Assembly: GCA_963825315.1 (NCBI GenBank)
Contig: CAWGST010000003.1
Span: 7,743-71,742, forward strand
DNA: 64,000 nt
DNA from: an uncultured Verrucomicrobiae bacterium
Lineage (GTDB): Bacteria; Verrucomicrobiota; Verrucomicrobiia; Limisphaerales; Palsa-1400
Reading direction: 5' to 3'
Shown here: in pieces, positions 47,195-51,226 of the stretch
Layout of the letters: every line of letters begins with the position of its first letter
Position numbering within the stretch: position 1 is the stretch's first letter
Made by a program: the position numbers and the translations under genes
The notes under the pieces: generated by a model
What the model was told of the DNA's origin: nothing
What the model saw: only the letters and a program-made list of their open reading frames with translations
Database searches by the model: none

Positions 47195-48151
47195 ATGTCG
47201 CAGCCCGAAGAAAAGGCGGGGCCAGCCGCCGATGCCCGGATTTTGGAGTTTCTTCGCCATCTGGCCGCCGATCAGGACGCCTCCATTTACACGCAAAGAA
47301 ACTATCGCCAGGCCCTGCTTGAATTCTTTGCCTGGTTCAAAAAACAGCGCGGAACCGTCCCGGACTGGTCCGTCTTGCGCCGGGACGACTTTCGCGATTT
47401 TCTCCGCTTTCTCGGCCGCGGCCAATTGAGCCGCGCCGCCATTCAACTCCGCTTTTCCGCCCTGCGTTCCTTTTACAAATTTTTGATTCGCAACGGCGCG
47501 GCCGGCGTTTCGCCGATCAGGAATCTTTCGCTGCCCCAACCGCAAAAACGCCTGCCCCTATTCCTGACGGTGGAACAATTGCAGGACCTGCTCGAAGCGC
47601 CCGGCGTGGAATTGCGCCGCGACGCGGAGAAAGGCGAAGCGGACGCCAGCCTTTACTTTCGCGACGCCGCCATTTTGGAGGTCATTTATTCCTGCGGCTT
47701 GCGCGTCAGCGAGCTTTGCCGGCTTTGCGCCGCTGATATTGACTGGTCCCAACAAGTGGTGTGCGTGCGCGGCAAGGGAAAAAAGGAACGGCTCGTTCCC
47801 ATTGGCGCGCCCGCCCTGGAAGCGATCCGCGCCTACTGGAAACATCGAACCGCCCTGGTCCAGGGCGGCCAGGCGGTTTTTTCCGCGCGCCCGAACAAAA
47901 CAACTCCGCTCTCGCCGCGCACGGTGCAAATGCGCCTGAAGAAGTATCTTTGCTCAGCCGGCCTGGACCCCAACATGACGCCGCACAAATTGCGCCACAG
48001 TTTCGCCACCCACCTGTTGGACGCCGGCGCGGATTTGCGCAGCGTCCAGGAACTGCTGGGCCACGCCCATTTGGTCACGACCCAGGTCTATACCCATATC
48101 ACGACCGAGCGATTGAAGCGCGCCTACGACCAGGCGCACCCGCGCGCCTGA
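47195..48151 (+). CDS. xerC: Tyrosine recombinase, XerC/XerD-like
   Basis: N-terminal SAM-like domain (YTQRNYRQALLEFFAWF). Catalytic region with GLRVSELCRL, KGKKERLVPIG, HKLRHSFATHLLDAGADLRSVQELLGHAHLVTTQVYTHI. Confidence 0.85.
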   Translation: MSQPEEKAGPAADARILEFLRHLAADQDASIYTQRNYRQALLEFFAWFKKQRGTVPDWSVLRRDDFRDFLRFLGRGQLSRAAIQLRFSALRSFYKFLIRNGAAGVSPIRNLSLPQPQKRLPLFLTVEQLQDLLEAPGVELRRDAEKGEADASLYFRDAAILEVIYSCGLRVSELCRLCAADIDWSQQVVCVRGKGKKERLVPIGAPALEAIRAYWKHRTALVQGGQAVFSARPNKTTPLSPRTVQMRLKKYLCSAGLDPNMTPHKLRHSFATHLLDAGADLRSVQELLGHAHLVTTQVYTHITTERLKRAYDQAHPRA

Positions 48152-48184
48152 AAAAGAATGCCGCATATCCCCTTGAAAATGAAA

Positions 48185-48258
48185 TGCCAGCGAGTGGAAT
48201 CGAACCACTGACCTCGGGCTTATGAGTCCCACGCTCTAACCAACTGAGCTACGCTGGC
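48185..48258 (-). tRNA. tRNA with CAT anticodon (Met; a lysidine-modified Ile2 cannot be excluded)
   Basis: Cloverleaf folded by hand: acceptor GCCAGCG/CGCTGGC, D arm GCTC-AGTTGGTTA-GAGC, anticodon loop CTCATAA, T arm AGTGG-TTCGATT-CCACT, discriminator A, no encoded CCA. Confidence 0.9.
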
Positions 48259-48308
48259 CCAACCGGGTTATATTTCGCGAAGAACAATGCCGCTGTCAAA
48301 TGCGATTT

Positions 48309-48350
48309 AAAAACAAAAAGCCCCTGTCCAGCCTTGCGACTGAACAGGGG
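48309..48350 (-). terminator. Rho-independent terminator (minus strand)
   Basis: In the minus sense the sequence is CCCCTGTTCAGTCGCAAGGCTGGACAGGGG followed by CTTTTTGTTTTT. It has a 7-bp outer stem plus inner pairs and a GCAA loop. Confidence 0.75.
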
Positions 48351-49290
48351 CAAATTGGGGTCTGGGAGTTCGCCATGCTCTCTTTCCCACGCTGACATTA
48401 GGCGCACCCTTGCGGGGCTGCCAGCTTCCCGACGCCATTCTCCACGGCAAGCGGAGTTTCCGGCCTCATAGCAGGGCCGTCCAGCGCCTTGCGGTCGCTG
48501 AATTATTGAGTGAGGCCTCTTAGCTCGCTTGGGCTGGCGCTTGCGGACGCCGGCTTGCGAACCAGGGCAAGACACGTATGCGACTTTGGATTCGCGTCTT
48601 GACCATTTGCGCTGGGTCGGCCACCGCTTTTGGCGATGCGTTGGCCCAGTGCCACGGGTCTGACCTCTTATCTCTCAGGTTGCCTTTCGTCACATGCCGG
48701 CGGTGTCGTTTGTAACATCGCCTGCATCTTGGAAGGTTTTTACAAGCCTTGCCTTGGCTGTGTCTCCTTCCCGGTGCGAATGCTCACTTTGTCCCGCCTT
48801 TCGGCGTCTTTCTTTGGGCTGGCCTTGGGTTCAAGACCGCCAGAGTCACCCGCCCCGTGCTGATGCACAGTAGCAACCTTTTACCCTCCGGGTAACTGCG
48901 ATTGGCTCAGGCCTGAAACCGGCCTGAACTACTTGACTCAACTTGGAACGGCTTCTGTTTCGTTCCTTGTCGCTCAGTTCCTGCTTCGCGTTACTGACAG
49001 CGCGCGAACGCCGCCAGAGGAACTGGTGAATACTGCCTCCGGTCTCCGCCTCTTGCAAGGCGGACTTAGAGGGGTTGGGCCAACCAGCCTGACTCAACCT
49101 TTCCCCAGTCACCTGGGATCATCCTTGGAACTCCGGCAATTTTCTTTCGTCCACCACCGTCATTCCAGCTCTTTCAATGAACTGCGAAGATCATGGCACA
49201 ATTCTTTTGCGATGAATACTAAATCTTATCCACAGGGTTATTCACCATCGCCAAATCTTATTCACAACCCGCCATCGCCACAAAAATCAA
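48351..49290 (-). ncRNA. Candidate large structured non-coding RNA (unidentified class)
   Basis: About 940 nt with no credible ORF in six frames, although flanking genes are tightly packed. The region is dense in local hairpins, including C-GCAA-G loops, and ends at the terminator above. The strand was inferred from GNRA loops and terminator polarity. Confidence 0.35.
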
Positions 49291-49508
49291 TACGGACGGC
49301 GCTTTTGCGCGCATGCGATTCTCCGGCCGCGGCGCGGCGATGGACCGCCCCGGCGCCGATGGTGGATAAGTTTTAAGCCGGAAATGCGCCGGAAACTGCA
49401 TCCACGCCCGAATTCAGGCTTTTTTCTTGTCCTGGCCGCCGTTTTTTTCCGTTTGATGTAGGCGACGCGGCGTTTGCGTTTCACGACTTTATTTGTTTGC
49501 TGGCCCAT
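49287..49508 (-). CDS. Hypothetical very basic small protein (uncertain)
   Basis: ATG preceded by GGAAGAAAG. The N-terminus is MGQQTNKVVKRKRRVAYIKRKKTAARTRKK. The rest is Arg/Gly/Pro-rich and may be non-coding read-through. Confidence 0.25.
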   Translation of the reverse strand: MGQQTNKVVKRKRRVAYIKRKKTAARTRKKPEFGRGCSFRRISGLKLIHHRRRGGPSPRRGRRIACAQKRRPY

Positions 49509-49552
49509 ATATCTTTACTTTCTTCCAAAAATGCGTTCTTTAATGGCGCACT

Positions 49553-50191
49553 ATGAAGAGCCGGCACCGTTCATTCAACATCTATTTTGCGCTGGTCTGC
49601 CTTGCCCTGGCCGGCGGTTGCGCCGCGACCATGGATGTCAAGAAGAAAACAAACCCCAAAAAAGAGCAGTCCACCATCCGCCTGTACCTGGAAGGGCAGA
49701 AAGCGGACAGAATGACCGCCGGCACAGTGCTGGTCACGAGCAACAGAATCCCCTTTACAGTCCAACGCGAGCCTTTTCTGGACGAAGGGGACTTGAGCAA
49801 GGCCTCGATAGTTGATGATGCGGATGGCAGTTTTTACATTCAACTGGTGTTCAACGATCACGGGACATTGTTGCTGGATATGTACACCTCCGACAACAAA
49901 GGCAGGCACATCATCGTCTTCTCTCAATTTCCCACGCCCGGCCAAAAGGCCCATCAGGCAAAGAAAAAGGCGGACGTTTCGGATGACTCGGATTTGGTGG
50001 ATAAAAGCAATGCCGAGCCGCCTTCCGCCGCGCCCCGATGGTCCGGCTGGCTTGCCGCGGTGTTGATTCGGGACCGCATCTCCAACGGCATGTTCCGCTT
50101 CACCCCGGACGCCTCCCGCGCGGAGGGCCTTCGCATTGTGCGGGGACTGAGAAATGTCATTGGCAAGGAAAAGAAAAAGGAACAATTTTAG
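49553..50191 (+). CDS. Hypothetical lipoprotein
   Basis: Lipobox ALAGGC at the end of the signal peptide (MKSRHRSFNIYFALVCLALAGGCAAT). 212 aa with no family recognised. Confidence 0.6.
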   Translation: MKSRHRSFNIYFALVCLALAGGCAATMDVKKKTNPKKEQSTIRLYLEGQKADRMTAGTVLVTSNRIPFTVQREPFLDEGDLSKASIVDDADGSFYIQLVFNDHGTLLLDMYTSDNKGRHIIVFSQFPTPGQKAHQAKKKADVSDDSDLVDKSNAEPPSAAPRWSGWLAAVLIRDRISNGMFRFTPDASRAEGLRIVRGLRNVIGKEKKKEQF

Positions 50192-50221
50192 GCAATCATC
50201 TCCCCAATCTTTTCGATTGAT

Positions 50222-51226
50222 GTGAACAAGATTTTTCTCTCCGGCCTGTTTCTTTTCGCGCGGCTCGCGGCCCTGGCGCAACCGTTTCATTTGCCCACGG
50301 CCAATCAGGCCTTGTTCGAGAAAGGCGGGGAGGAGAAGTTTTTTGTTGGGACCTCCGGCCATTCCTGGACGAGCGGGTGCTTTGGATGCGTTCGTTCCGG
50401 CGGCCGGCAAATGCACGAGGGCCTGGACATCAAATGCCTGCAACGGGACAAGCGCGGCGAACCGTCCGACCCGGTCCTGGCCACGGCCGACGGCACGGTG
50501 GCGTATATGAACAACCGGCCCTCCCTTTCCAATTACGGCCGGTACATCGTTCTGCGTCACGTCATCGGCGGCCTTGAAGTTTATTCCCTCTACGCCCACC
50601 TGGCGGAATTCGCCGGCGGCCTCAAAGCGGGCCAGGCGGTGAGCGCCGGCGAAAAAATCGCCGTGATGGGCCGCACCAGCAACACGCGCGCAGGCATCTC
50701 CAGGGAACGCGCCCATGTCCACTTCGAGCTGAATCTTTTTTACAACGATCATTTCAGCGCCTGGTTCAAAAGGCATTATCCGAAGGAGCATGACGATCAC
50801 GGGATTTGGAACGGACAAAACCTGGTCGGCTTTGATCCGCGCCTGATCTTCCTGGCCCAGCGCGAAGAAGGCCCGCATTTCGACCTCGCGCGCTGGCTGC
50901 AACAGCGCACCGAGATTTGCCGCGTCCTGGTGCGAAAAACCGATTTTTCCTGGCCCAAGCGCTATCCCATGCTGGTGCAAAACGACCCGGCCCTGCCGCG
51001 GGAGCGAATCGCCGGTTACGAAATGGCGCTCGATTTCAACGGTCTGCCCTTCCAATTGATCCCCCGCGCCGCCTCGCAAATGAAAGGGACCGCCAAGTAC
51101 CAACTGCTCTCGGTCAACGAAGCCGAATACACCAAAAATCCCTGCCGCAGGCTGGTGACGCGCCGGGGCGCCCATTGGCAACTGGGCGGAGAGGGCGTCA
51201 ATTTGCTGGATTTGCTGACCAACTGA
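50222..51226 (+). CDS. M23-family metallopeptidase
   Basis: GTG start and signal peptide. HEGLDIK...GTVAY...GRYIVLRH...YSLYAHL...RAHVHFEL fits the HxxxD / HxH zinc-site pattern of M23 peptidases. Confidence 0.8.
   Translation: MNKIFLSGLFLFARLAALAQPFHLPTANQALFEKGGEEKFFVGTSGHSWTSGCFGCVRSGGRQMHEGLDIKCLQRDKRGEPSDPVLATADGTVAYMNNRPSLSNYGRYIVLRHVIGGLEVYSLYAHLAEFAGGLKAGQAVSAGEKIAVMGRTSNTRAGISRERAHVHFELNLFYNDHFSAWFKRHYPKEHDDHGIWNGQNLVGFDPRLIFLAQREEGPHFDLARWLQQRTEICRVLVRKTDFSWPKRYPMLVQNDPALPRERIAGYEMALDFNGLPFQLIPRAASQMKGTAKYQLLSVNEAEYTKNPCRRLVTRRGAHWQLGGEGVNLLDLLTN

Follow-up and report, generated by a model that had tools for sequence, protein, structure and literature searches.

MISL RNA of an uncultured verrucomicrobium: covarying pseudoknots, a conserved 5' leader and an adjoining array of DnaA-box-like sites

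The window analysed here is a 64,000-nt stretch of DNA from an uncultured Verrucomicrobiae bacterium (GenBank assembly GCA_963825315.1, contig CAWGST010000003.1), in which an earlier note, made from the letters and their open reading frames (ORFs), had marked about 1 kb as a candidate large structured RNA. The segment from ~48310 to ~49184 on the minus strand is very probably a stand-alone gene for MISL RNA (Rfam RF03079), a structured non-coding RNA of ~870 nt that is found across the Verrucomicrobiota and would act in trans through its fold. The locus is covered by a full-length match of 605.3 bits to the Rfam model, its base pairs covary in an alignment of 104 sequences and no coding periodicity was detected, which bears out the prediction of a large structured RNA that is read from the minus strand and ends at a terminator. 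Few large and ornate RNAs of bacteria lack a known function, and MISL RNA is among them. The features of the family described below (its 5' end, two pseudoknots, terminator, box array and a small protein) offer concrete experimental handles on this orphan RNA.

Results

The locus is a member of the MISL RNA family

The whole window was scanned with cmscan using the curated Rfam thresholds, and two families were matched, tRNA-Met and MISL RNA. The match to RF03079 was not truncated (model positions 1-751 of 751) and exceeded the gathering score of 274.6 bits by far (E=2e-183). The locus is therefore a member of the known MISL RNA family, and it agrees with RF03079 on every point that can be tested: the core in the window does not differ from the model, none of the model helices is missing and the host is likewise a verrucomicrobium. 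The annotation as MISL RNA is obtained with any Rfam scan. The earlier observation was thus correct in that a real structured RNA gene is present, but the candidate was not a new one, since the family was already in Rfam.

A rescan of positions 48000-49600 at E<=1 returned, besides MISL and the tRNA, one sub-threshold chance match on the tRNA. In this rescan no model was matched for RNase P RNA, transfer-messenger RNA (tmRNA), signal recognition particle (SRP) RNA, 6S RNA or group I and II introns, and none for OLE, GOLLD, ROOL, HEARO or riboswitches; nor had signatures of RNase P, tmRNA, SRP and group II introns been found when the sequence was first read. MISL RNA is said to have been described by Weinberg and colleagues in 2017 (NAR 45:10811), in a paper whose main text does not contain the name. 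In the literature searched, no experimental study of MISL RNA was found beyond in-vitro chemical mapping, for which it served as a substrate (Ribonanza preprint).

Relatives were collected by scanning one genome per species for a 19-base conserved stretch, GCAACCTGAGAGNTAAGAGG, which yielded at least 120 loci. Each of them carries exactly one MISL homologue as judged by nhmmer, and 103 homologues are complete, i.e. not cut by the end of the locus. Nearly all loci are labelled Verrucomicrobiota, with Opitutae/Lacunisphaera, Limisphaerales/Pedosphaera and Verrucomicrobiales represented. The nearest relatives of the window copy among the loci listed are Limisphaerales-type metagenome-assembled genomes (MAGs) with 94% identity, while the median identity is 63%; the 18 least similar relatives all passed the Rfam threshold at full length (479-597 bits). 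At least two carriers are cultured, Limisphaera sp. VF-2 (L085) and Horticoccus sp. 23ND18S-11 (L089). Complete genomes that carry MISL include OY970130.1, where it is located near 1.68 Mb, and OZ245769.1, where it is located near 0.57 Mb. Three homologues (L002, L075 and L081) are 850-1000 nt long through insertions and still match the model from end to end. Six records (L023, L040, L044, L046, L106 and L018) are labelled Saccharimonadales, Bifidobacterium/Bifidobacteriaceae, Klebsiella or Dongiaceae. These MAG contigs are probably mis-binned, because the MISL sequences on them are of the Limisphaerales type.

The secondary structure is under strong selection and includes pseudoknots

The Rfam consensus structure was transferred onto the window sequence. 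This copy has 171 of the 177 model pairs, 160 of them in canonical form. A long-range helix joins residues 451-461 with residues 610-617 (window positions 48664-48674 with 48508-48515). The window copy and the 103 complete homologues were then aligned with MAFFT, without structure input, and the model pairs were compared with a shifted control in which the 3' pairing partners were slid by 1-3 columns. Across these 104 sequences 87.4% of the model pairs were canonical, compared with 36-42% in the slid controls, and compensatory double changes, each seen in at least two sequences, were obtained at 110 of 171 pairs (51-69 in the controls). These results demonstrate that the secondary structure of MISL RNA is under strong selection; the search for relatives and the covariation test that had been proposed for the candidate thus both gave a positive answer.

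Four helices that had been folded by hand from the sequence correspond to Rfam consensus helices, with the loops GCAA (48489-92), CAAAA (48628-32), GAAA (48799-802) and UUGCC (48446-50). Five copies of CTTGCG (CGCAAG on the minus strand) are indeed present at 48333, 48409, 48488, 48540 and 48554. Their excess is local: five copies in 227 nt stand against ~0.1 expected from the other 27 plus-strand copies in the window, whereas window-wide 59 copies were counted on both strands with 61 expected. The suggestion that they form tetraloops applies to three of them (the terminator loop and residues 633-636 and 712-715). A further copy caps the long helix 563-602, and one is located in the 5' strand of this helix and not in a loop; three or four of the five are tetraloops. 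A second repeat, GUUGAGUCA, occurs twice as described (48934 and 49090; 0.35 expected). The invariant nucleotides of the family are located in junction strands, which in the window copy read GCAACCUGAGAG-UAAGAGG, GCCUCACUC, GGUUGCUACUG, CCUGCUAUGAGG and GAAUGGCGUCGGG.

The pairs with the highest mutual information were mostly model pairs, together with crossing pairs. Two pseudoknots (PK1 and PK2; Table 1) are supported by covariation. PK1 is canonical in 89.6% of cases, compared with 25-47% when slid, and covaries at 121-136 (CG 68, UA 28, UG 6) and 122-135 (GC 63, AU 30). PK2 is canonical in 85% (19-35% when slid), with covarying pairs 430-547, 433-544 and 434-543. The two hexamers of a candidate third long-range pairing, PK3, are fully complementary and invariant in all 104 sequences, and because they never vary, this pairing is beyond the reach of covariation. 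Several other pairs that emerged from the mutual-information analysis, such as 652-687 and the group 94/315/316/336/649/661, reflect two-state differences between clades and were not counted as contacts.

Table 1. Features of the MISL locus and its surroundings (positions in the 64,000-nt window)
Feature	Position	Strand	Description
MISL RNA core according to RF03079	48365..49124	-	cmscan; 760 nt, 19 hairpins
5' leader outside the Rfam model	49127..49184	-	two hairpins, conserved and covarying
Predicted extended -10 element	49190..49198	-	TGC-CATGAT; read from sequence and clade alignment
Intrinsic terminator of the MISL transcript	48310..48351	-	14-bp stem, GCAA loop, U tract
Pseudoknot PK1	48985..49008	-	loop UUCGCG (residues 117-122) with CGCGAA (residues 135-140)
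Pseudoknot PK2	48578..48695	-	residues 430-435 (48695..48690) with hairpin loop 542-547 (48583..48578)
Candidate long-range pairing PK3	48678..48878	-	GGUUGC 247-252 (48878..48873) with GCAACC 442-447 (48683..48678)
Three DnaA-box-like 9-mers, same orientation	49226..49266		TTATCCACA 49226-34, TTATTCACC 49238-46, TTATTCACA 49258-66
Fourth DnaA-box-like site, opposite orientation	49361..49369		TTATCCACC on the minus strand
Conserved start of small basic protein gene	49416..49508	-	MGQQTNKVVKRKRRVAYIKRKKTAARTRKKP; tblastn and profile search
tRNA-Met(CAT)	48185..48258	-	neighbour, downstream of the terminator

The transcript probably extends beyond the Rfam model at its 5' end and ends at an intrinsic terminator

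Compared with the RF03079 model the conserved unit seems to be larger, with two hairpins (~60 nt), a predicted promoter and the DnaA-box-like array added on the 5' side and a conserved terminator on the 3' side. The 250 nt upstream of the Rfam start were aligned in 106 loci. Hairpin 1 of the leader (CAGUUC-AUUGAAA-GAGCUG, 49184..49166) is built on a GUUC-N7-GAAC element that is extended to 6 bp and is found at ~-58..-40 from the Rfam start in every clade, with the sequence GTTC(A/C)TTGA(A/T)AGAAC being kept in all clades. In several lineages including the window its 3' arm reads GAGC, which pairs through a U-G wobble only in the sense RNA and breaks the palindrome in the DNA; moreover, its second pair is switched from A-U to U-A between clades. 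Hairpin 2 (49165..49127) is closed by the outer stem GGAAU/GUUCC, of which five out of five pairs covary and 95.5% are canonical (20-36% when slid), and it formed in single-sequence folds of all ten lineages tried.

The MISL RNA probably starts ~60 nt upstream of the Rfam boundary, near 49183, in which case RF03079 would be ~60 nt short at its 5' end. The predicted transcription start, ~49182-49184, falls at the foot of hairpin 1. It is preceded by a predicted extended -10 element and a weak predicted -35 element (TATTCA, 49213-49218), and the aligned relatives of the window's clade present the pattern TTGTC.. for the -35 and gaTAtgAT for the -10 element. In a strict sigma-70 scan of 48100-49650 no promoter was found, so that the promoter is counted as inferred.

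At the other end, a 13-nt linker (48352-48364) separates the MISL core from the intrinsic terminator at which the gene ends. The 14-bp stem of this terminator (48351..48320, nine G-C pairs) carries a GCAA loop and is followed by TTTTTGTTTT, in line with the clean minus-strand terminator that had been described. A hairpin followed by a T run was detected ~48 nt past the Rfam 3' end in 88 of 113 loci, the window included, but in only 31 of 271 control windows. The primary transcript is thus probably ~870 nt long. The interval 48300-49290 originally proposed for the RNA does enclose it; its part from 49125 to 49290, however, lies outside the core and contains the leader, the predicted promoter and three of the DnaA-box-like sites.

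DnaA-box-like sites accompany the MISL gene across the family

Upstream of the predicted promoter three DnaA-box-like 9-mers are found in the same orientation, the first of which (TTATCCACA) matches the DnaA-box consensus perfectly. A counterpart of the fourth, oppositely oriented site is kept at ~-245 in the window's clade. Window-wide the number of DnaA-box 9-mers is at chance level, and three of the eight matches lie within 144 nt at the array. Enriched 8-mers were also searched for without a prior motif in the region -300..-60 of all loci. The top 8-mer in both major clades was TTATTCAC, which is present in 30 of 43 loci of one clade and 51 of 59 of the other, while the background is ~0.002 per 240 nt. 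Strict matches to TTRTYCAC amounted to 2.6 and 2.0 per locus (103 loci), compared with 0.06 and 0.02 per 400 nt elsewhere; all of them are located within -260..-105 of the Rfam start, and their positions and orientations are fixed per clade. The array consists of 2-5 sites per locus of the types TTATCCACA and TTATTCAC[CA], which are ~45-95-fold enriched over the flanks, and is kept in Opitutae-type as well as Limisphaerales-type loci. In most loci of the window's clade a proximal box, TGTG(G/C)A(T/C)AA, is found at -108..-114 from the Rfam start, corresponding to ~-50 from the predicted transcription start. The boxes track MISL across differing neighbourhoods and do not track the small ORF that precedes MISL in the window's clade (see below), as one locus (L122) has this ORF and neither MISL nor boxes.

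DnaA-controlled promoters and box clusters outside the origin are well known, among them the dnaA, nrdAB and mioC promoters and the datA and DARS loci of E. coli and the clusters of B. subtilis. The MISL array resembles them in that several 9-mers matching TTATNCACA adjoin a predicted promoter and in that the two proximal boxes are closely phased (12 nt from start to start). It differs in that most boxes of these putative sites end in C instead of A. We know of no large structured RNA gene that is a DnaA target.

The most serious alternative is that the box cluster marks a chromosomal replication origin, or a datA/DARS-like locus that handles DnaA, and that MISL is an origin-proximal transcript which helps to open or regulate the origin, for which mioC and gid transcription at E. 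coli oriC would be the model. The 2-5 positioned sites in both orientations throughout the family would fit an origin, as would the divergence of genes from ~49.3 kb in the window and an AT-rich stretch of ~40 nt that separates the proximal box from the start of the RNA and can also be read as a promoter. However, no origin-type switch in GC skew was observed: the mean skew of the flanks was -0.050 downstream (83 loci) and -0.013 upstream (86 loci), and in the 51 loci with two flanks the difference, downstream minus upstream, had the wrong sign (-0.037, p=6e-4; a weak test with 8-kb flanks). In addition, the cumulative skew of the window has no minimum at 49 kb, neither the window nor any of the 120 loci contains a dnaA signature, and in two loci (L121 and L123) the genes do not diverge at this place. 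A literature search for oriC or DnaA boxes of Verrucomicrobia returned nothing relevant. We consider an origin improbable and leave it a small residual chance, because flanks of 8 kb make the skew tests weak. A promoter of MISL that responds to DnaA, or to another factor, appears to be the better reading of the array.

Flanking genes differ between clades

The genes flanking MISL change from clade to clade, while MISL and its upstream region do not; the upstream synteny is stable within each clade. In Opitutae-type loci HrpB is encoded upstream and TypA downstream of MISL. In the window MISL is preceded by a small ORF, a lipoprotein-like gene and a gene for an M23 peptidase, and followed by tRNA-Met and xerC.

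The small ORF is conserved but unannotated, and its product would be very basic. Its conserved part shares the strand of MISL, ~290-385 nt before the Rfam start, and follows the pattern MGxQxNKVxKRxRRxAYLKRKK... In the window it lacks the usual stop codon and its frame stays open to 49287. By tblastn, homologous ORFs of 31-76 aa (most of them 31-45 aa) were found in 27 loci of the window's clade, on the same strand and 320-780 nt upstream of MISL. In a profile search 2107 clusters of proteins were obtained (E<=0.01), the best 120 of which are 31-52 aa long and nearly all unnamed or "hypothetical". The ORF matched no Pfam or NCBIfam family. Its position and charge make the small basic protein a possible candidate for a partner of MISL RNA. 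The linkage between the two is frequent and not obligate: an obligate one was rejected, as locus L122 contains the small ORF, the lipoprotein gene and the M23 gene without MISL. The lipoprotein-like gene (with a weak SecDF_P1_head match) and the M23 peptidase gene occupy 49553-51226 on the plus strand and diverge from the small ORF across a gap of 44 nt; the trio is kept in ~30 loci.

The recombinase gene and the tRNA gene directly downstream could be taken as marks of an island, and MISL as part of a mobile element or phage, either GOLLD/ROOL-like or as a transposon-associated guide RNA. The occurrence of MISL sequence in three IMG/VR contigs would also fit this idea. The recombinase, however, scores as a chromosomal XerC/XerD (302 bits with TIGR02224; it also passes the PRK00283 cut-off), and therefore gives no sign of an integrated island. 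Furthermore, MISL is present as one copy per locus in 120 loci, no plasmid match was obtained and the stable upstream synteny within each clade is not what a mobile element would leave. The three viral contigs are RNA-phage fragments in which the MISL pieces are terminal and differ in orientation and breakpoint. Given these findings carriage by a plasmid or phage was rejected, and we regard a mobile origin of the RNA as very unlikely.

The contigs in question (L126, L127 and L128) are short levivirus-like fragments, each with a MISL piece at one end; a levivirus maturation protein is encoded by one, and an ORF resembling an RNA-dependent RNA polymerase is common to two. In two of the contigs the viral sequence is 100% identical as far as a shared junction, beyond which MISL continues in sense orientation in one contig and in antisense orientation in the other. 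For this reason the contigs are regarded as chimeras, probably made by template switching. Since levivirus contigs derive only from RNA, they indicate, albeit indirectly, that MISL was an abundant transcript in those samples, and they may point to the hosts of the phages.

It was also considered whether the region could serve tRNA-Met or xerC in cis as a leader or precursor, such as a processed 5' extension or a riboswitch-like regulator. MISL and tRNA-Met lie on one strand, 106 nt apart, and the same arrangement is seen in L034 and L079, the closest relatives of the window. Yet the strong terminator at 48351-48310 stands between MISL and the tRNA, xerC is on the opposite strand, the downstream genes vary between clades, and these two are the only ones of 109 relatives with a tRNA within 300 nt downstream of MISL. 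A linkage to the tRNA was rejected on this count, and a cis-acting leader appears less probable still than a mobile element. The location beside tRNA-Met that had been pointed out is real, but this neighbourhood is incidental and specific to the lineage. The tRNA seems to have a promoter region of its own on the minus strand (48259-48310), where TTGACA (~48292..48287) is followed by AT-rich sequence up to TATAAC. As the spacing comes to 18-21 nt, varying with the -10 element chosen, this region escaped the strict scan.

The MISL locus is non-coding

Between the end of the xerC-like gene at 48151 and the start of the next credible gene at 49553 only short, overlapping ORFs are present on both strands, the longest of 147 aa, in agreement with the ~1-kb ORF-poor stretch first described. 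None of the five ORFs tested in the region had a Pfam match. Variation across the MISL homologues showed no three-base (lag-3) periodicity, and the lengths of the homologues fall in even proportions into the three classes modulo 3. The MISL locus is thus non-coding. That it is a decayed protein-coding gene, the remains of which fold by chance, was rejected and is the least probable explanation of all, as the stop-free stretches of 64-249 codons on both strands that might suggest it are expected at such a G+C content, while periodicity, a constraint on length modulo 3 and Pfam matches are absent and compensatory base-pair changes extend throughout the RNA. Conservation and covariation are both present, and a decayed gene is excluded by the periodicity and Pfam tests, so that on these three of the counts named beforehand nothing speaks against a structured RNA.

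Discussion

A gene for a trans-acting RNA is the preferred reading

We propose that MISL RNA is transcribed from an extended -10 promoter of its own and starts at the conserved 5'-terminal hairpin, ~60 nt before the Rfam boundary. It would fold into a compact body that is held by the long-range helix and at least two pseudoknots, with the invariant nucleotides placed in the junction strands. Such a compact fold with invariant junction strands suggests that MISL acts in trans through its three-dimensional structure, and the change of flanking genes across clades supports action in trans. MISL might accordingly be the core of a ribonucleoprotein or a ribozyme rather than an RNA that pairs with mRNAs or regulates its neighbours; a role of this kind is the usual reading for bacterial RNAs so large and complex, such as OLE, RNase P, GOLLD and ROOL. 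The phased DnaA-box-like array next to the promoter suggests that transcription of MISL may be set by the replication initiator DnaA.

In its widest form the proposal is tentative and, in our judgement, more doubtful than not: MISL would be a fold-dependent RNA with phased DnaA boxes of its own, the synthesis of which is tied to the initiator, the cell cycle or the growth state, and which in one major clade may act together with the basic protein of ~35 aa. If this holds true, MISL would, to our knowledge, be the first among the large orphan RNAs of bacteria for which a regulatory input is defined, and RF03079 would have to be seen as lacking ~60 nt on its 5' side. Neither in the Rfam model nor in the literature searched did we find the 5' extension, the pseudoknots, the array of DnaA-box-like sites or the basic protein.

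Several points weigh against this proposal. Most of the boxes are of the type TTATTCACC, with deviations from the E. coli consensus at positions 5 and 9, and the boxes could bind a factor other than DnaA. The transcription start and the promoter are predictions to which the strict sigma-70 scan contributed no site, and Opitutae-type loci have no recognisable promoter. A protein partner and catalysis, like expression of MISL in the source organism, are putative. Finally, the leader, the pseudoknots and the boxes may already have been reported outside the literature searched.

Comparison with known systems

GOLLD and ROOL are large RNAs that form homo-oligomeric cages (PMC12286853). MISL belongs to a similar size class, has many GNRA-type loops and, in the window, a tRNA next door. 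In contrast to GOLLD and ROOL, which are usually associated with prophages and adjacent to tRNAs, MISL is chromosomal and single-copy, is rarely adjacent to a tRNA (2 of 109 relatives) and occurs in phage or plasmid records only as chimeras.

The large ribozymes and universal RNAs offer a second comparison. MISL differs from them in that none of their Rfam models was matched at E<=1 and in having neither an intron-encoded ORF nor an exon context. Like RNase P RNA, group I and II introns, tmRNA, SRP and 6S RNA, however, it is a multi-junction RNA with pseudoknots and invariant unpaired nucleotides, and this combination suggests a fold-dependent chemistry or the scaffolding of proteins.

A parallel in kind is OLE, an RNA of ~600 nt that forms a ribonucleoprotein in Bacillota and is confined to this one phylum (PMC12054373, PMC12265935). 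MISL shares no sequence or model similarity with OLE, is not part of an operon and lacks an adjacent oapA-like membrane protein gene. Both, however, are ornate RNAs of large size and high conservation, encoded once on the chromosome and each restricted to one phylum. The OLE ribonucleoprotein includes the small basic protein bS21 (PMC12054373), and just as OLE binds small basic proteins, MISL is accompanied in the window's clade by a conserved upstream gene for a small basic protein, its putative partner.

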